A DNA stretch of 20,953 bases from Promethearchaeota archaeon (GTDB taxonomy: Archaea; Asgardarchaeota; Hermodarchaeia; Hermodarchaeales; Hermodarchaeaceae): NCBI GenBank assembly GCA_048938385.1, contig JBHLMG010000032.1, positions 1 to 20,953 of the forward strand, given 5' to 3'. Under the pieces are notes generated by a model that was not told where the DNA came from, ran no database searches, and saw only the letters and a list, made by a program, of their open reading frames with translations. Numbering within the stretch: position 1 is the stretch's first letter; each line of letters starts with the position of its first letter. Position numbers and translations under genes: made by a program. Below are positions 1 through 8,342 of this stretch, piece by piece.

Positions 1-204
1 ACACCGCGATCTGCGTCTAGAGTTTCAACGCAAACTAAGGCCGCCCCCAAGGTAAACTCTGAACACGCTCCTGCTGCTGCATCCCAAGCTGCTTCTCCAC
101 CAGAAAAGGTAGATGCTATAGCTGAAACCCATGGCTCTAATCAGCCTTGGCGTGAGAAGATGCGTGAAAAATATGGGCTCAAGAAAGAACCAGGCAAAGT
201 GTAA
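1..204 (+). CDS. 3' end of a protein truncated by the window edge; low-complexity Ala/Pro/Ser tail ending in a short basic helix
   Basis: Frame 1 is open from base 1 to TAA at 202-204: TPRSASRVSTQTKAAPKVNSEHAPAAASQAASPPEKVDAIAETHGSNQPWREKMREKYGLKKEPGKV*. Converges on the ORF ending at 253. Not in the ORF track. Confidence 0.7.
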   Translation, partial: TPRSASRVSTQTKAAPKVNSEHAPAAASQAASPPEKVDAIAETHGSNQPWREKMREKYGLKKEPGKV

Positions 205-252: not shown

Positions 253-708
253 CTACTTTTCTATTAGTTCTAAGTAGCGCCTGATGAGTCGTTCCATCCG
301 AAGACAGTATAAGCCGTCTTGGGCTGCTTGTAAGGTCTCTCGGAGTGATTCTAGAATTTGTGCATCAGCAGACGAAGTACGGAGGTCTCCGAGAGCTTCA
401 AACCCTTGGGCAATCGTAGCAGCTAATTGAGAATAGTGAGTTACGCTACTTCGCCGCTGTTCGCGTAAGTTGGAATGGATTTCCTGAAATTGAGGCTCAA
501 TCGTATCTAATCGAGCTTTTAAGATCTGGTCAAGTTGGGTGATGGTCTCCTTCAGACCTGTTAATTCTTGGCTGAGTTGTGTTATCTTATTGAAAAGATT
601 AGTAAAAGCTTGAGTGACGAAAGGAATAAGGGACGCATCACCCTGTGGGGCGGGGGGTTGTTCTGGTGGTGGAGGTGTAGGCGGGGTGGGGGGTTGTCCG
701 GTCATCAT
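253..708 (-). CDS. Hypothetical coiled-coil protein with polyproline N-terminus (151 aa)
   Basis: PPTPPTPPPPEQPPAP followed by heptad-patterned helices. Strong SD GAGGTGA (712-718, minus) before the ATG; 11 bp after the preceding stop. Confidence 0.85.
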   Translation of the reverse strand: MMTGQPPTPPTPPPPEQPPAPQGDASLIPFVTQAFTNLFNKITQLSQELTGLKETITQLDQILKARLDTIEPQFQEIHSNLREQRRSSVTHYSQLAATIAQGFEALGDLRTSSADAQILESLRETLQAAQDGLYCLRMERLIRRYLELIEK

Positions 709-711
709 GGT

Positions 712-718
712 TCACCTC
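712..718 (-). promoter_or_regulatory. Shine-Dalgarno site for the 253..708 gene
   Basis: Minus strand reads TAAT-GAGGTGA-ACC-ATG-ATG. Confidence 0.7.
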
Positions 719-719
719 A

Positions 720-1109
720 TTAGGTTCCTCCTTTTTTCGAAGCTTCGAATCGCTTGACAGCTTCAACCACATCGTCAAGATTAATCTTGTTTGTTAACTC
801 GTCAACAATTTCGATAATTACACGGATAGCGTCCTCAATATCTTTGAGGTTACTCAGTTCTTTTGCCCTATCGACTTCGGCAATGAGTTGAGTCTCCACA
901 AGCTGGCGTTGTTCACGGAAGGTTTCAATGTCGCGGTGAATTTCCTGTGCTGTAGTATCTGCTTGTTTTATTGTTTGTTCCAATTGGGCTTGCAGATTCT
1001 GTGACATTTCTTCCATGGCTGTTCGTGTTGCTTTAACCTGCTCGGAGAGTGCGTCGATACTTTGTTCAATCTTGCTAATTACTTCTCTTACTGCAGCTGC
1101 ATTAGACAT
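720..1109 (-). CDS. Hypothetical all-helical coiled-coil protein (129 aa)
   Basis: E/Q/A/K-rich, no Pro, heptad pattern; starts 17 bp after the actin-like stop with purine-rich AGGGG upstream. Confidence 0.85.
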   Translation of the reverse strand: MSNAAAVREVISKIEQSIDALSEQVKATRTAMEEMSQNLQAQLEQTIKQADTTAQEIHRDIETFREQRQLVETQLIAEVDRAKELSNLKDIEDAIRVIIEIVDELTNKINLDDVVEAVKRFEASKKGGT

Positions 1110-1126
1110 ACTTTTTCCCCTATTCT

Positions 1127-2137
1127 TTACATTTTGGCTGCTCCCAGCCAGCTACTATACAATGGATGTTCCAGGTCAAAAACCTTCACTGCTAAATGAG
1201 GGAACTGATTATGTAAATCGTTTTCAATGCGTGTCCCTAATCCGAGAAACATAGACCCACCACCAGACATGACGATGTTGGATGCGAGTTCAGCGCGTAC
1301 ACTCGTATCTACTCGTTGTAATACATCTATAAGGGCATCAGTTAAGCCTTTATCTCCTACTCCAAGAAGTGTAGGTTGAAAAAGGACCTCTGGTGCTTGC
1401 CAGGGTAACGAACCTAAAGAAAGCTCAGTTCCTTGGTATCGGAACTGCGCTATCTCTCCAAAGGCTCCATTAGCCTCACAAGGCTGCACTTTACAAAGGG
1501 TTTGTTTAATCTTTGAGATGGCTGCTCCATCGTTTGCTAGTTTGTTGTAAAGGTGGGTTTGAGTTGACTTTGCTTGATGGAATAGCAATTTTCGAATTTC
1601 AGCGGAGATAAAAAAGCTCCCTGTCACAATGGTACATATTTCTTCTTCCAATAGGAATCCACGATAAATAGGTGTAATGAACGACACTGAATAACCAACA
1701 TCTACAATGAGTCCCGTTTTGCGACCCCAATGCCCCCAGGTTAAAACTTGTTGTATCGCTGCATCTACATGCATGCAGCCAAGCGCTTCTTTCACGGCCT
1801 GACAAAGTTGCGTTACTTGTTCAAGGTCAGAGAGAGGAAAAACGAGGAGTGTCACCTCTACATCTTCACGATTGTTATTAAGTTGGGGAAACTGCTCTAG
1901 GGCAAGGGTACAAAGCTTTACTACGGGATCAGGATCTTTAGGTAACAGACCGTCCTCGAGGGGGAATACCCATTTTCTTCGCCCTGGATCTAGTTCACAG
2001 AAAATGGAGTTGCCTTGGCTTAGCGAACTCATCTTAAAAGCTGCAGGGATGACTACAGGTTCAGTAAGCTGTCGAGGGCCGCATTTGAGATAACCGCTTC
2101 CCAGGTCAATGAGAAGGCTTGAGAGAGCTTTATTCAC
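1127..2137 (-). CDS. Divergent actin-related protein, paralog A (336 aa)
   Basis: Phosphate-1 loop LIDLGSGYLKCG, AIQQVL (actin AIQAVL), phosphate-2 loop IVDVGYSVSFITPIYRG (actin VLDSGDGVTHTVPIYEG), APEVLFQPTLLG (actin CPEALFQPSFLG), adenosine motif NIVMSGGGSMFLG, YSSWLGA (actin YSVWIGG). GTG start. Confidence 0.92.
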   Translation of the reverse strand: MNKALSSLLIDLGSGYLKCGPRQLTEPVVIPAAFKMSSLSQGNSIFCELDPGRRKWVFPLEDGLLPKDPDPVVKLCTLALEQFPQLNNNREDVEVTLLVFPLSDLEQVTQLCQAVKEALGCMHVDAAIQQVLTWGHWGRKTGLIVDVGYSVSFITPIYRGFLLEEEICTIVTGSFFISAEIRKLLFHQAKSTQTHLYNKLANDGAAISKIKQTLCKVQPCEANGAFGEIAQFRYQGTELSLGSLPWQAPEVLFQPTLLGVGDKGLTDALIDVLQRVDTSVRAELASNIVMSGGGSMFLGLGTRIENDLHNQFPHLAVKVFDLEHPLYSSWLGAAKM

Positions 2138-2249
2138 AATTGGGTGTAGGAACTAGCTTTGAAAACAGTTTCTATCTCCTTGTTGTGAGCCTCACGATTA
2201 TGGAGTAAAACTTGAGAGTTTTTTTGTCCGCTGTCTCTTTATCTCTTTC

Positions 2250-3269
2250 TTACTGAGTTGGAGGCAGAGCAAGACGAGCAGCTCCCTGCCAAGCATTAGT
2301 CAGTGCGTCTTCTAAGGCATAAACATTAACTGGAAGATGCGGAATCCGTCGCTTCAGCTCTAGCTCAAATCGTTCTCGAAGACCCAAAATAAGAGAACTC
2401 CCACCAGTGAGTACAATATCATTGGAAAGTTCTCGTCGCATTGTTAAATCCACCTGCTCAATTGATTCGATCACTGCATCGACTAAGCCTTTATCGCTAA
2501 TCCCTAATATTGAGGGATCAAACAAGAGTTCTGGAGCCTTCCAAGTGATGTCTCCTAGGGGAACATTGAGGTTTTTTCGTCGGTATCGCCATTCGCGTGG
2601 AGTGGTTTTATCGCGGGAATCAGGGCGAACTTGACAGTAATTTCGTTTAATGTACTCTATGGCCTTAGTATCAGTTGCTAATTTAGCATAATCTGAGTAT
2701 CGGGAAGAACTTTTTGCTTGGTCTTCTAACAGACGACGAATCGCCGCAGAAACATACAACCCTCCAGTAGCTGTATCCACGACATGTTCCTGGAGGAGGA
2801 ATCCTCGGTAAATAGGAGTAATGAGTGAAACTGAGTGACCAATGTCAACTACGGTTCCGGTGTGTTTCTGGAGAAATAACAGCGTCAGAACTTGCTGATA
2901 GGCTGCAAGGAGCTTTTTACATCCTAGTGCAACACGAAGGTTATCGCAAACCTTGTACACATGGTTTTGTGGTACTGTGGAAAACACTAGCAACTGGACT
3001 TCTGTTGCTAAGCGCTGATGCCCTCCTAGGCCAACGCGTTCAAAAATATCGAGGATAAGGGGTTTGAGAATATCGCTTGGTGGAAGGTTTGCGTTTTCCA
3101 TTGGATAGAATTTGCCAACCCGTGTTGGATCGAGAATTGTAAGATAGGGATCTCCGGTTCTGCCATTGATTGCCTTGAGACATGCAGGAAGAATTTTAGG
3201 AGTTGCTTGATTGGGGTAACCGTATTTTAGAAATCCTGTGCCCAAATCAATAATAAGCGGATTTTGCAT
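2250..3269 (-). CDS. Divergent actin-related protein, paralog B (339 aa)
   Basis: IIDLGTGFLKYG, AYQQVL, VVDIGHSVSLITPIYRG, APELLFDPSILG, DIVLTGGSSLILG, NAWQGA; GAGG SD upstream of the ATG. Confidence 0.92.
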   Translation of the reverse strand: MQNPLIIDLGTGFLKYGYPNQATPKILPACLKAINGRTGDPYLTILDPTRVGKFYPMENANLPPSDILKPLILDIFERVGLGGHQRLATEVQLLVFSTVPQNHVYKVCDNLRVALGCKKLLAAYQQVLTLLFLQKHTGTVVDIGHSVSLITPIYRGFLLQEHVVDTATGGLYVSAAIRRLLEDQAKSSSRYSDYAKLATDTKAIEYIKRNYCQVRPDSRDKTTPREWRYRRKNLNVPLGDITWKAPELLFDPSILGISDKGLVDAVIESIEQVDLTMRRELSNDIVLTGGSSLILGLRERFELELKRRIPHLPVNVYALEDALTNAWQGAARLALPPTQ

Positions 3270-3303: not shown

Positions 3304-4119
3304 CTATGGTGGCATGAGGATTGTGGAGTAAGGAATGGATGGTTCAAGGAAGCTAAAGGTCACTTTGGGATGTTCCACACGCAGAATCTGTGTTAGTCGG
3401 CTCATTCCTGGAATTTCGGTGGAAATTTGAGGAACAGCCACTAGCTTCATTTTGAGCTGGCTTGCCTGCATGGCTAACTCGTGAGTGATGTGACCCGTAA
3501 GGTAAGTGTCACAACCTTGTTCTTTCGCGAGTCGTAGCCAATCCTCAGTTATTCCTTTCCCTGTCATTAATAGTAATTGATCAACCTCGTCTTCGAGTTT
3601 TCCAACATAGGTAAGGGAGGGGATTCTTAATCGCTTGGCGATGTATTGAATGAAGGTTTTAAGATTGGTTTCTTTGGGAACTGCACAAACACGACCCAAA
3701 GGAAGTATATCACCGTCAATTGAGACTTTAAAAACATCATTAACTTTGAACCCGAGTGTATGTGCCAAGACATCAGTCATCCCTTGGTCGACAACTGCCC
3801 AGGCGTAGTGTGCAATGTAAACGGTCAAATTTCGCTTCAATAGATGTTGTAGTAGAAGTTGTGATAAGCCTGTAAAATGCGTCGTTGTTTTTGGAAAAGG
3901 GGAACGATGCGCAATGAGGAGTCCGGCACCGAGTTCACTACTTTTGATAATGGTGGGGACTGTGATGTCAACACAGATCGCAGCGGCTGAAAGTCGGATT
4001 CGCTTTTGCTTGTTGATATCACTCGTGCCTAGGATTACACCATTCACATCGCCATTGGGCACATACATGCTCGGTACCAATTTTTCAAGATGTGTGACGA
4101 CCTCCCACAATGTTGCCAT
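3304..4119 (-). CDS. Nif3/YbgI (DUF34)-like protein with degenerate metal site
   Basis: Family pattern D.NG..LG, .CVD.T, LLIAH, VYIAH, LGRV, YLTG.I.H, STE..G. The canonical HH, D and C-terminal H ligands are altered. Confidence 0.85.
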   Translation of the reverse strand: MATLWEVVTHLEKLVPSMYVPNGDVNGVILGTSDINKQKRIRLSAAAICVDITVPTIIKSSELGAGLLIAHRSPFPKTTTHFTGLSQLLLQHLLKRNLTVYIAHYAWAVVDQGMTDVLAHTLGFKVNDVFKVSIDGDILPLGRVCAVPKETNLKTFIQYIAKRLRIPSLTYVGKLEDEVDQLLLMTGKGITEDWLRLAKEQGCDTYLTGHITHELAMQASQLKMKLVAVPQISTEIPGMSRLTQILRVEHPKVTFSFLEPSIPYSTILMPP

Positions 4120-4256: not shown

Positions 4257-5627
4257 GTGTCTAAAAAATCTCCTCTCAAAGAAATTAGTCGCGAAGAAGC
4301 CGCTGCTGAGGTTCTATCAATCTGGGAGGAGACACACCTTTCGTTACGCACCGCGATGGAACAGTTAGCTGAAGAATGGGGAATCATTGACTGGCCAATT
4401 CGGACCGCTATTCATGGTCTTGTGTTTGAAACAGTTCGTCGGTTAAACACTATTGATTATGTGTTGAATTTAGTGCTAGAAAAGACTCGTGTCTCAGACT
4501 TGGATTCCCTTCTTCGGAATACATTACGAGTTGCCTCCTACTTGATTCTTTTTCGGAAGGTTGTTCCTGCGTTAGCCACAAACGAAGCAGTATCCATTAT
4601 TAAACGGCGAAGAAATAAACGACTAGCGGGTTTAGCTAACGCTGTTTTAAGAACGATACAAGAATATGAGCTTGAAGAAATCTTACAAGGTGTGAATGAG
4701 TCAATAAAGAACGAATTACTCTATAGCGTCCCTCAATGGTTTTATGATTATACGGAACGGCTTTTCGGAACTGAAGAAGCCCGGGCGTTCTTCTCTGCCA
4801 GTCTAGATAATCCTTCAGTCTATATTCGAATAAATACCCTTAGCACAAATGCTAAGGCGGCTTTAAGCCACCTCGAAAGGGACGAATTCCAATGCTTAAG
4901 GGTGCCTCCTCTACTAGAGGTGTATAAGCTGCAACATGGGACAAGACCTGTTACCCAAACCACTCCATATGTTGAAAACGCTATATACATCCAAAGCCTC
5001 GCTAGCGCTTTAGTATCACATGTAGCGAACCCCCGCTCTGATTCCATTATAATCGATTTATGTGCCGCACCTGGAAGTAAGACTTCTCATCTGGCTCAGC
5101 TTATGAAAAACAGGGGTCACATTCTAGCTTTTGACAACCTGGTCTCTAGAACCCAAGAACTATGCCGAAATCTTACCCGGTTGGGAGTAAGAAACACCCA
5201 TGTTCTCTTGGCAAATAGCACCTCACTTCCTCTTCGTAAGGGTTTCCGTGCTGATCGTGTCTTAGTTGACCCCCCTTGTAGTAATACAGGGGTAATTCAA
5301 ACACGACCTGAAGCCAAGTGGATCATAACCGAAGACCTCGTGCAACGATTACAAAAGATCCAATTTGGATTGTTGCAAGAAGGCAGTCGCTTTGTTGCAG
5401 ATAATGGGTTCTTAATATATTCGACATGCTCGATAACTCTCACTGAGAATGAACAATTAGTTCTAAAGTTTCTTGAGAATCAACCCAAGTTTATTCTTGT
5501 ACAGGCTGAGCCACTCGTAGGTAAAGAAGCTTTTATTGGTATGACTCAGTGCCAACGCCTTTTTCCACAACATGACGACACTGAGGGTTTTTTCATTGCT
5601 AAGTTTCAACGAAACCCAGGCAGCTGA
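4257..5627 (+). CDS. rsmB: RsmB/NOP2-family RNA m5C methyltransferase with N-terminal NusB-like domain
   Basis: NusB-like LRVASY..NEAV..K..LANAVLR; IRINTL; SAM motif DLCAAPGSKT; both catalytic Cys motifs (DPPCSNTG, YSTCS); TEGFFIAK. Confidence 0.93.
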   Translation: MSKKSPLKEISREEAAAEVLSIWEETHLSLRTAMEQLAEEWGIIDWPIRTAIHGLVFETVRRLNTIDYVLNLVLEKTRVSDLDSLLRNTLRVASYLILFRKVVPALATNEAVSIIKRRRNKRLAGLANAVLRTIQEYELEEILQGVNESIKNELLYSVPQWFYDYTERLFGTEEARAFFSASLDNPSVYIRINTLSTNAKAALSHLERDEFQCLRVPPLLEVYKLQHGTRPVTQTTPYVENAIYIQSLASALVSHVANPRSDSIIIDLCAAPGSKTSHLAQLMKNRGHILAFDNLVSRTQELCRNLTRLGVRNTHVLLANSTSLPLRKGFRADRVLVDPPCSNTGVIQTRPEAKWIITEDLVQRLQKIQFGLLQEGSRFVADNGFLIYSTCSITLTENEQLVLKFLENQPKFILVQAEPLVGKEAFIGMTQCQRLFPQHDDTEGFFIAKFQRNPGS

Positions 5628-5635
5628 TAATGCAC

Positions 5636-7057
5636 CTAAATAAAAATCGGCCACATAGACATACGAATCGGCATAGAAAGTTGCCGGAATGGTTTACCAA
5701 TACTAGCTTCATTGATGGCTTTTGCTAAGGCTGATACACTCAGGGATTCTGTCTTAGCCTGTTTCACGCTAGATTCCGAACGGACAGTAACTGTGAGGGA
5801 GTTGGTTTCAATCTCTTTATCACCAATCACTACGACATAGGGTATCCATTGGGTTCCTGCGTTACGAATCTTCCAGCTGACGGTTTTTCCCCGGTCATCT
5901 GTTACTGCCCGCACATTTTGTTTCCGTAATTGCCCAACAATCTTCTCTGCGTGGTCTGAATGGCGGTCAGCAACAGGAATAACTACGACCTGTACTGGTG
6001 AAAGCCACAATGGGAGCATCGGGAGTTCTCCTTTCTGTTGACGCTTTACAGCACTTTCTAAAAGTCCGTACACCAATCGTTCTAAACTACCAATACTGGT
6101 GTGTACTATGATACAGCCAACTTCTTCTCCCGCGTTGTTAACATAGGTTATTCCGTATCGCTCTGCATCAGTTACATCTAATTGTACAGTGCATAATTGT
6201 CCAGATCCTTCTGCTGCATCAACAAACTGGAATTCATTTTTCACATTCCAGTAATGGGTCATTTCTGGTAGTAGTTCAACTAGAATTACTCGCTTCAAAT
6301 CCTGGGCAAGTTCTATCAGGAGGTCGCGGGTTTGGTCGTAATACTCTTCGACCATCCGAAATACCAGTAGATACTCGATGCCCAAGCTCTTTATGAGTTG
6401 ATCATAGAATTTAGTGATTCGGGCAAATTCCTCTTTCCCCTGCTCGTAGTCAACACAAAAGCAGTGAATATCCGGCATGGTAAATGCGCGAAGGCGACGA
6501 AGACCAACGCACTCACCGCGCTTTTCTAGCCGGAAAGAGGGGGATAGTTCGAAGATGCGAATGGGTAACTGGCGTTGAGACATCTGGACATTTTTCATTG
6601 TAGAAAAGAGTCCAAAGTCACCTGCAAACCGCAGGAGGAGTTCTTTGTCTTTGCTAAGTTTAATTCGATAGTCTTTTTCTAAGAATTTCGCTGCTTGTTC
6701 AGCGATATCTTTCTGGCTTAATCGATACATTAGTGGAGTTTCGATGCGCATGGCGCCAATCAAATCTACGGCAATAGAATGGACATAATCTTCGAGCAGC
6801 TCCTTTAGGAATGCCCCTTTCGGATAGAACCGAAAATGCCCCACATCCGAAGCGGGTTCATAATCGATAAGCTCCAGTTGTCGCATCACACGAATATGAG
6901 GTGGTTCTCCCTTAGCTGGTCGTCCCAACTCCTCTGTTTCGATAAAGGTGCGAAATTCCCCTTTGATTACCTTATTGTCATCTAACTTAGCTAGATCGAG
7001 TGATTGTTCCTTACCTTTTGAATCAATGAGTAAGTACTTAGCCAAGGTTAACGCCAA
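5636..7057 (-). CDS. thrS: Threonine--tRNA ligase, archaeal type, catalytic plus anticodon-binding domains only (no N-terminal editing domain)
   Basis: DYEPASDVGHFRFYPKG, motif 2 SFRLEKRGECVGLRRLRAFTMPDIH, TVQLD, motif 3 HTSIGSLER, LPLWLSPVQV, archaeal tail GKPF...PIF. TTG start directly after an in-frame stop; exact start uncertain. Confidence 0.93.
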   Translation of the reverse strand: MALTLAKYLLIDSKGKEQSLDLAKLDDNKVIKGEFRTFIETEELGRPAKGEPPHIRVMRQLELIDYEPASDVGHFRFYPKGAFLKELLEDYVHSIAVDLIGAMRIETPLMYRLSQKDIAEQAAKFLEKDYRIKLSKDKELLLRFAGDFGLFSTMKNVQMSQRQLPIRIFELSPSFRLEKRGECVGLRRLRAFTMPDIHCFCVDYEQGKEEFARITKFYDQLIKSLGIEYLLVFRMVEEYYDQTRDLLIELAQDLKRVILVELLPEMTHYWNVKNEFQFVDAAEGSGQLCTVQLDVTDAERYGITYVNNAGEEVGCIIVHTSIGSLERLVYGLLESAVKRQQKGELPMLPLWLSPVQVVVIPVADRHSDHAEKIVGQLRKQNVRAVTDDRGKTVSWKIRNAGTQWIPYVVVIGDKEIETNSLTVTVRSESSVKQAKTESLSVSALAKAINEASIGKPFRQLSMPIRMSMWPIFI

Positions 7058-7151
7058 CTAATATTAAGTTCTAAAGGATACTCGCCATCGTTCGCCCCAC
7101 GCTGAAAAAAAGTTTCTATAGTACCCTTTTCCCTTCCTTGGAGGTAATAAT

Positions 7152-8342
7152 TTGGACCTAAAACTTGCCCAAGCAAAAAATCAGCAAGCCAGTGATCTCC
7201 TCAAGGAGTTAGATTTAGATACATGGATTATCTGGGTACGAGAAACCAAACAAATGGCTGACCCTGCCCTTTCATTAATTCTAGGAATCGATCTGGTTTG
7301 GCAATCTGCTCTGATTTATACGAAAACTGGTAAACGCATCGCCATTGTAGGAAACTTTGATGCGGCAGGCATCCAGCCTTTACAAATCTTTGACGAGATT
7401 ATACCCTATACTCAAAGCATTCGGGAATCCTTGCGTCAGGAACTAAATCGATTGAAACCTAAACGCATTGCATTGAATTTTAGTCGAGATGATGTTGCCT
7501 CAGATGGCATAACCTTTGGTATGTATAACCTGTTAACCGAATACCTTCAAGGAACTCCCTATCCCCAACGCTTCGAAAGCGCTGAATCCCTTTTAAGTCT
7601 GCTGCGGGGACGCAAGACTCCCGAAGAACTCAACCGAATCACACAGGCTATTAAAATCACTGAGAGAATATTCGAAGAAGCTCACCAGTTTCTGCGAATA
7701 GATCAAACAGAACTCGATATCTACCGCTTCTTCCATGAACGCTTGGAAGCTCATGGTGTTGGTTTGGCGTGGGGTGCAGACCATAATCCTGCCGTTGATG
7801 CTGGACCTAACAAACAATTCGGTCATGCTGGGCCAACCGATAACAAGACTAAGGCAGGGCATCTTCTCCACTTTGATTTTGGTGTCCGCTACCAAGGTTA
7901 TTGCTCAGATTTACAACGAATGTTCTTTTTTGGAAATCCCCAAGATATCCCAGAGGAAATTCAATCAGCGTTCAACACCGTACGGGATGCGATTCAAACA
8001 GCATCAGAGTTCATCAAACCAGGGGTGAAAGGGCATGAGGTAGATGCCATCGCTCGCACCTATGTCAAAGACCAAGGATACCAAGAATACCAACATGCGC
8101 TGGGTCACCAAATTGGACAGCAAGCGCACGATGGAGGGACCATCCTAGGACCCCTCTGGGACCGCTACGGATCTAGTCCCCAAGGCCTCCTCGAGGCTGG
8201 GAATGTTTTCACTCTTGAACTTTATGTTACAACGAAAAATTACGGTCAGGTAAGCCTTGAAGAAAACATAGTCGTAACCAAGACTGGATGCCAATTTCTC
8301 TCTAATCCACAGACTCAACTCTTGTGTGTTAGACTAAAATAG
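7152..8342 (+). CDS. Xaa-Pro aminopeptidase family (M24B) metallopeptidase, apparently active
   Basis: All five metal ligands present: HFDFG, YCSDLQR, HALGHQIG, TLELY, SLEENIVV. Confidence 0.92.
   Translation: MDLKLAQAKNQQASDLLKELDLDTWIIWVRETKQMADPALSLILGIDLVWQSALIYTKTGKRIAIVGNFDAAGIQPLQIFDEIIPYTQSIRESLRQELNRLKPKRIALNFSRDDVASDGITFGMYNLLTEYLQGTPYPQRFESAESLLSLLRGRKTPEELNRITQAIKITERIFEEAHQFLRIDQTELDIYRFFHERLEAHGVGLAWGADHNPAVDAGPNKQFGHAGPTDNKTKAGHLLHFDFGVRYQGYCSDLQRMFFFGNPQDIPEEIQSAFNTVRDAIQTASEFIKPGVKGHEVDAIARTYVKDQGYQEYQHALGHQIGQQAHDGGTILGPLWDRYGSSPQGLLEAGNVFTLELYVTTKNYGQVSLEENIVVTKTGCQFLSNPQTQLLCVRLK

Follow-up and report, generated by a model that had tools for sequence, protein, structure and literature searches.

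What kind of actin system is encoded where two shortened actin genes stand directly beside two genes for long helical proteins? The arrangement lies near one end of a 20,953-nt stretch of DNA (the window: positions 1 to 20,953, forward strand, of contig JBHLMG010000032.1, assembly GCA_048938385.1) from a Promethearchaeota archaeon of the Hermodarchaeaceae. Its four genes, here called actin B, actin A, CC1 and CC2 (CC for coiled coil), form a cluster that is real and conserved. A sequence-only reading had taken them for a candidate, possibly novel heterodimeric module of actin-related proteins (Arps) scaffolded by dedicated coiled-coil subunits; no earlier description was found in the open literature, and the cluster is apparently undescribed in what is searchable. 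The answer favored here, held tentatively and as something a little short of an even bet, is a Hermodarchaeota-specific minimal actin system: a non-F-actin assembly that would be docked on the CC helices of an older gene cassette. The features of the locus are as follows.

3304..4119, minus strand: NIF3/DUF34 gene (Pfam DUF34_NIF3, 4.6e-34)
2250..3269, minus strand: actin B, 339 aa, ATG start (Pfam Actin, 3e-34)
2156..2173, minus strand: 18-nt element conserved upstream of A, a candidate operator or promoter of an A-CC1-CC2 unit
1127..2137, minus strand: actin A, 336 aa, GTG start (Pfam Actin, 9e-31)
720..1109, minus strand: CC1, 129 aa, acidic (isoelectric point 4.7) and all-helical, with heptad periodicity in a heptad scan
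253..708, minus strand: CC2, 151 aa, one long helix in an AlphaFold2 model
643..708, minus strand: Pro-rich disordered N-terminus of CC2 (PPTPPTPPPPEQPPAP), predicted local distance difference test (pLDDT) about 50
1..204, plus strand: C-terminal end of CC3, a convergent gene left as a 5′-open reading frame, recognized by collinearity in the loci of the window's genus

The open reading frames place B, A, CC1 and CC2 within 253-3269 in one orientation, and NIF3/DUF34 at the head extends the co-oriented run to five genes, with gaps of 34, 112, 17 and 11 bp in order from NIF3. The coordinates thus bear out the three inner gaps of the sequence-only reading, and the motifs it had listed as common to the two actins (LDPxR, LLVF, QQVLT, ITPIYRGFLL and W.APE.LF.P..LG..DKGL.DA.I) were all found in both. 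Its Shine-Dalgarno sites stood for B (GAGGA), CC1 (GGGGA) and CC2 (GAGGTG) but not for A: no such site was found in the start region of that gene, which has instead a GTG kept in 10 of 10 aligned genomes and the upstream element.

Gene order is conserved well beyond the window. NIF3-B-A-CC1-CC2 occurs in all 14 genomes of the window's genus (g1), and in a more distant contig from the Joint Genome Institute (JGI), whose B-type gene is 53% identical, there are again two actins, as the earlier reading would have it. The heterodimer that it inferred is not obligatory, since other lineages hold one actin with CC1-CC2. The four genomes of the sister genus g2 all have NIF3-actin-CC1-CC2, and in a Guaymas Basin contig one actin gene overlaps CC1 by 31 nt, with CC1 and CC2 both clear orthologs (hhalign match 99.9% for CC1). 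Directly after the actin, a CC1 ortholog was present in 18/18 genomes of the family, and among the surveyed family loci no lineage was found in which actin lies apart from the cassette.

The two actins are true actin-fold and probably ATP-binding proteins that come from the actin/Lokiactin lineage. The Pfam Actin family (PF00022, cut-off 27) matches B with 118.6 bits and A with 107.3 bits, covering profile positions 5-382 of 410, and B and A share 42% identity across a length of 336 residues (E 3e-86). With an AlphaFold2 model of B (pLDDT 88, predicted template modeling score 0.87), the top 50 Foldseek matches comprised only actin-fold chains, from actins and from dynactin Arp1 (E about 1e-22, template modeling (TM) score 0.75-0.83), the best of them ordinary eukaryotic actins at TM 0.80-0.83. 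Compared with solved structures, a profile of the family gave 2e-39 for HC1 actin, 2e-37 for actin, 6e-37 for Arp1 and 9e-36 for Arp2 (HC1 is a cultured Hodarchaeales strain, and its actin is of Lokiactin type). Scores this close to equal, with ordinary actins as the best structural matches, speak against the Arp identity first proposed; judged by its profiles and its trees, the family is a divergent actin that belongs to none of the named Arp classes. Below the Pfam threshold there were weak matches to Salactin, MreB and Volactin, confined to the C-terminal 60-70 residues.

How far does the family extend, and how old is the duplication? A profile of 25 members was searched against 1.84 billion representatives clustered at 50% identity. 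Four clusters and one fragment reached family-level scores (380-533 bits), after which the scores dropped to about 139 bits, where ordinary actins begin. Among the intermediate matches (541-895 aa, 147-199 bits, two or three matched stretches), two-domain “double actin” proteins of 740-895 aa were considered as A-B fusions and rejected, because their rank sums domains that singly score below ordinary actins; the five examined by name were gene models of Anaeramoeba or other eukaryotes. Trees recover the family as a single clade (support 100/100) whose stem is about 1.1 substitutions per site long and which is not nested in any sampled group, the ARP6 group included (other representatives carried no names). 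By these scores and branch lengths the family is narrow and long-branched, and it is confined to Hermodarchaeota. Within it, clades A (98/99) and B (97/98) are each well supported, the single actin of g2 groups with B (92/88), and an approximately unbiased test rejects a clade of A and B only (p 0.022, for a hypothesis chosen after the tree was seen). Since the g2 actin groups with B, the duplication predates the separation of the two genera, and g2 has since lost A; the local duplication read from the shared motifs is therefore not a recent one. A is absent from g2, where tblastn found no remnant of it in the actin-CC1 gap, and it is the faster evolving of the two (mean identity within g1 67%, against 76.5% for B). 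B-type actin is the core paralog, retained in every lineage of the family. Sites that are conserved in each paralog but distinguish A from B number 28 and are scattered without a cluster; g2 shares 8 of them with B and 9 with A.

The residues that these actins have kept and lost were mapped in actin numbering, with a Lokiactin-type control included. All members keep D11, G13, S/T14, G15, K18, Q137, D154, G156, K213 and G301-G302, and the nucleotide-binding loops are retained in A, B and the g2 and Guaymas members. ATP binding is likely, because the phosphate-1 loop is retained together with the residues of that list from Q137 onward. Replaced in every member, and unchanged in the control, are D157 (to H or Y), G158 (to S) and H161 (to L, F or I). 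In actin, Q137, D157 and H161 make up the catalytic set for polymerization-coupled ATP hydrolysis; of that set Q137 only remains, so these proteins fall outside what defines F-actin in this respect.

The deletions tell a similar story. In all members the DNase I-binding loop (D-loop, residues 38-52) is shortened by 7 residues and 3 more are gone at 64-66; the 243-248 hairpin is deleted (6 residues), and the chain ends at actin position about 349-352, with the last 24-29 residues missing. An insertion of about 8 residues lies near position 200, and the proteins are about 35-40 residues shorter than Lokiactin and the Asgard “ARPs”. The hydrophobic plug (262-272) retains its normal length, and conservation across four lineages is highest in the hydrophobic-plug stretch 255-269 (the best 15-residue window), then in the W-loop (163-177) and then in the nucleotide loops. 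In F-actin the D-loop inserts into the barbed-end cleft of the next subunit, and C-terminal helices (about 350-375) complete subdomain 1 and the cleft; D-loop, 241-247 loop and C-terminal cleft helices are the longitudinal contacts of the filament. Of the four deletions, three sit in such longitudinal-contact elements, with the cross-strand plug retained. Because the longitudinal elements are deleted and the plug is kept, dynamic F-actin would not be expected from these proteins, although this is an indirect argument. Nor are they the main actin of the cell. Elsewhere in the window's genome (2.48 Mb, 51 contigs, 89.8% complete) lie a canonical Lokiactin-type gene that a contig end truncates (its N-half scores 240 bits), genes for two gelsolins of two domains each and a profilin-like gene just under the Pfam cut-off, and it is because of these that the short actins can be regarded as an additional system. 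Among the sequencing runs that contain the genome no RNA run is listed; the DNA runs are sediment and mangrove metagenomes.

The link between the actins and the CC genes is carried by operon structure and overlaps, by a joint jump in evolutionary rate and by the shared 18-nt element. The element reads AG(A/C)AACTGTTTTCAA(A/G)CA, and has the palindrome AAC-N-GTT at its core. In all g1 genomes it sits 18 nt before the GTG of A; in g2 it is found about 60 nt before CC1 in 4/4 genomes, followed by TATAATA. It is unique in the 2.48-Mb genome, and its candidacy as a regulon or general promoter motif was rejected: it occurs once, and the other match to its 12-mer core is what chance would give. In g1 genome G007 a 288-aa gene without Pfam family (L026:4195-5061, plus strand) is inserted between B and the element with A, and because of this insertion B and A can be seen as separable, with A staying beside the element and CC1. 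A-CC1-CC2 (or CC1-CC2 where A is missing) would thus be under a common candidate control element, with B following NIF3 and having its own ribosome-binding site. In one g2 genome, G018, the spacer between actin and CC1 is 279 bp long (L037:4290-4570) and contains, before the element, a G+C-rich segment that may be structured. As for rates, identity drops from within g1 to between g1 and g2 from 76 to 41% for actin, from 77 to 38% for CC1 and from 85 to 49% for CC2. The drop is smaller in the flanks: 73 to 57% for NIF3, which takes no part in the jump, 64 to 55% for W6 and 75 to 69% for W7.

What are the helical proteins? Neither CC1 nor CC2 has a Pfam family above cut-off, with sub-threshold coiled-coil matches only, and heptad registers are long in both. 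The AlphaFold2 model of CC2 (pLDDT 80.6) is one continuous helix from 27 to 150 with a dip in confidence near 100-120. CC2 is the most conserved gene of the neighborhood (84.8% mean identity within the genus), and its N-terminus is kept as a polyproline tract in g1 alone; g2 and the Guaymas lineage lack the tract. That CC1 and CC2 are paralogs of one another was considered and is not supported (BLASTP E 6.4, hhalign probability 3.3%). Searches of the ESM Atlas with CC1 and CC2 gave no usable match, Foldseek found no match to the CC2 model in the PDB, and profiles of both against PDB sequences returned generic coiled-coil noise only (Sso1/syntaxin Habc at 0.018, apolipoproteins, designed coils). 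The third helical gene, CC3, is collinear in all g1 loci; in full (L026:7289-7849, minus strand) it encodes about 186 aa, with a helical, heptad-rich N-half and a charged, low-complexity Pro/Lys-rich tail.

The CC genes reach beyond the actin family. Among 301 genomes of the phylum, CC2 homologs were found in 29 with a narrow profile and in 68 with a wide one, and CC2 matches its homologs in other Asgard families with an hhalign probability of 97.6%. They come with a recognizable signature: a CC2-type N-terminal motif, I-P-(F/L)-x-T-Q-A, a CC1-type gene before it and a convergent CC3-type gene facing it. This three-gene layout was found in families f7, f18, f20 and the Odin-like f2 (1.4-Mb genomes) with no actin nearby. 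Similarity of the outer members is weak: 21% between CC1 and the CC1-like genes of other families, and BLASTP values of 7e-6 to 1e-4 between CC3 and the convergent genes there. By its distribution, CC1-CC2 with convergent CC3 is an older, Asgard-wide cassette, and the trio CC1-CC2-CC3 may be the conserved unit. The coiled coils had been proposed as dedicated partners of the actins, which does not fit the occurrence of CC2 homologs with CC1-like and CC3-like genes where no actin adjoins them. What precedes the CC1-like gene in f7 and f18 is instead a gene for a conserved 230-aa protein without Pfam family. Such an upstream protein (222-235 aa in other Asgard families; L041:6221-6907, L042:3974-4678, L038:2801-3466) may be the partner of the cassette where actin is lacking. 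By eye this protein has a roadblock/longin-like N-half and a winged-helix-like C-end. Its best counterpart in the window's genome is a marginal match (E 0.066) to a 223-aa protein of similar layout. In f9 and f23, which have larger genomes, the gene after a related pair encodes a protein of 290-305 aa. The Odin-like CC2 homolog (L039:3847-4245, minus strand) is an open frame with no ATG, GTG or TTG near the conserved N-terminal motif, and the frame starts right past the point where the CC1-like gene ends, an arrangement that points to translational coupling or to a non-standard start.

How might these parts work together? Under the favored model the minimal actins would form, in place of dynamic F-actin, a side-by-side dimer or a short non-canonical oligomer, composed of B with A in g1 and of B-type actin alone elsewhere, with ATP turnover expected to be slow. 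The assembly would dock on CC1/CC2 helices of roughly 18 nm. CC1/CC2 would have taken actin as a client in Hermodarchaeota, the upstream gene in f7 and f18 being the unrelated 230-aa protein, and A-CC1-CC2 (in g2, CC1-CC2) would be jointly controlled through the genome-unique element. The earlier heterodimeric picture is upheld in part: gene order and apparent novelty carry over, while a recent duplication, an obligatory heterodimer, dedicated partners and Arp identity do not. Several points weigh against the model itself. Any physical contact between actin and CC1/CC2 is an inference. The CC cassette occurs without any actin in other Asgard families, and because it does, adjacency could be historical; the whole neighborhood is collinear within the family, unrelated flanks included, and for that reason synteny alone is weak evidence. 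In g2 the actin-CC1 gap is 109-279 bp and holds the cis element and a TATA box, so that actin and CC1 may be separate transcripts there. Charge complementarity between actin and CC2 was considered and rejected: B is neutral to basic and CC2 acidic in g1, and the signs flip in g2 (actin -16, CC2 basic), but the Guaymas lineage does not follow the pattern (actin +11, CC2 +1). Finally, prokaryotic actin homologs like MreB and ParM polymerize without a eukaryote-type D-loop, so proteins with these deletions may still form filaments.

That last point leads to a reading on the unlikely side, in which the family is a lineage-specific, filament-forming actin, cytoskeletal or cytomotive, like crenactin, ParM, MamK or Salactin: B alone or a B/A copolymer would assemble through non-canonical contacts, and CC1, CC2 and CC3 would be side-binding regulators or adaptors, as with tropomyosin or the arcadins. 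Prokaryotic cytoskeletal actin-fold proteins usually polymerize, conservation is strong in the ATP-binding loops, at Q137 and in the plug and W-loop stretches, a 124-residue helix could cover about three subunits along a strand, and lineages with a single actin fit a homopolymer. The placement of three of the four deletions in longitudinal-contact elements and the replacement of D157, G158 and H161 would argue the other way. Distinctly unlikely, in our estimate, is a further reading in which side-by-side dimers of the minimal actins, homo- or heteromeric, are clamped on a helical CC1/CC2 (or CC1/CC2/CC3) rod and the trio is a general adaptor rod with lineage-specific clients. The client would then be actin in Hermodarchaeota and the 230-aa protein, roadblock/longin-like by eye, with its winged-helix-like tail in others, and the whole would be a prokaryotic counterpart of Arp4-actin-HSA or of the dynactin rod.

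The genes could also be neighbors by history. It is decidedly improbable, we think, that an actin gene was inserted between NIF3 and an existing CC1-CC2 in the Hermodarchaeota ancestor and functions independently. The greater age of the cassette, found without actin in Odin-like and other families, the collinear flanks and the promoter-like region that the CC genes of g2 have to themselves would all fit such an insertion; it would not account for a rate jump common to actin, CC1 and CC2 but not the flanks, for the 31-nt overlap of actin and CC1 in the Guaymas lineage, for the position of A between the cis element and CC1 (17-bp gap) or for the failure to find a lineage with actin and cassette separated. 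Highly improbable is an Arp2/3-like or capping module acting on Lokiactin filaments, with A and B mimicking a short-pitch dimer and the polyproline of CC2 recruiting profilin-actin. The two paralogs, the conserved plug region, the CC2 polyproline N-terminus in g1 and the presence of a profilin-like gene and Lokiactin in the genome make up its appeal. Against it, the family does not fall among Arp2, Arp3 or other named Arps, and Arp2 scores no better than actin or Arp1; g2 and the Guaymas lineage lack the polyproline and make do with one actin; and the barbed-end C-terminal helices, which would make the contact to the daughter filament, are missing. A search for ARPC4 (PF05856) gave no match in the 89.8% complete genome, but control genomes gave none either, and other ARPC families were not searched.

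Known systems resemble parts of this arrangement. Lokiactin and the divergent Asgard “ARPs” (PF00022) belong to the same Pfam family, fold and phylum, and the best solved relative is HC1 actin (9wc4). The minimal actins differ from them by the deletions and the replacements at D157, G158 and H161 described above, by their restriction to Hermodarchaeota and their long stem, and in always having CC1-CC2 after them. The crenactin and arcadin genes of the “arcade” cluster of Thermoproteales, reportedly described by Ettema and colleagues in 2011 and by Izore and colleagues in 2016, likewise place an archaeal actin homolog beside small partner genes, a likeness in layout that is not based on sequence. 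The minimal actins have lost the longitudinal-contact elements, and their helical genes appear as an independent, Asgard-wide cassette. Crenactin, by contrast, retains a D-loop-like element and forms F-actin-like filaments; some of the arcade partners are coiled coils, and at least one binds the hydrophobic groove of crenactin. Among eukaryotic systems, Arp4-actin and Arp7-Arp9 on the HSA helix and the Arp1 rod of dynactin with p50/p24 likewise combine actin-fold paralogs with long helical partners, and in such Arp-on-helix modules the actin-fold proteins do not polymerize freely. Structures of Arp1 and of Arp4-actin were among the matches to the family. The likeness does not go beyond architecture: the minimal actins are orthologous to no Arp class, some lineages need just one actin, and Pfam and PDB profile searches detected no similarity of the CC helices to HSA, p24 or p50. 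ParM/ParR, AlfA/AlfB, MamK/MamJ, Salactin and Volactin are also lineage-specific actin homologs in operons with small partners; unlike in those bacterial and haloarchaeal systems, no DNA-binding adaptor is evident at the locus, and the helices of CC1 and CC2 are acidic.

Asgard archaea are the reference for the origin of the eukaryotic actin cytoskeleton and of the Arps. To our knowledge, only Lokiactin has been functionally studied among the Asgard actins. The family shows a Lokiactin-type actin re-engineered in one Asgard lineage, with longitudinal-contact elements removed and the gene duplicated and tied to a helical-protein cassette common to many Asgard lineages. If the proteins do form a defined complex, this would be an independent and experimentally tractable case of an actin-fold polymer turned complex subunit, as in eukaryotic Arps, and it would give a first functional handle on the uncharacterized CC cassette. 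Other Asgard ARPs are likewise of unknown function (Rodrigues-Oliveira et al., 2022; PMC9834061). The direct bearing on eukaryogenesis is limited by the narrow distribution of the family, which is a single class.

The NIF3 gene is the sole copy in the genome. All lineages have it upstream of actin, and in the Guaymas contig the two genes share 4 nt; it is probably a housekeeping neighbor that is merely co-transcribed. Aligned to a solved NIF3 protein, the conserved His-His of the NIF3/DUF34 protein reads His-Arg (IAHRSP). Further along the window, at 4257-8342, homology to the JGI contig points to a NusB/RsmB-type methyltransferase, a class II aminoacyl-tRNA synthetase and an M24 peptidase, and in relatives a queuosine-salvage (Q_salvage) gene and an adaptor-complex-subunit-like gene lie downstream of CC3.

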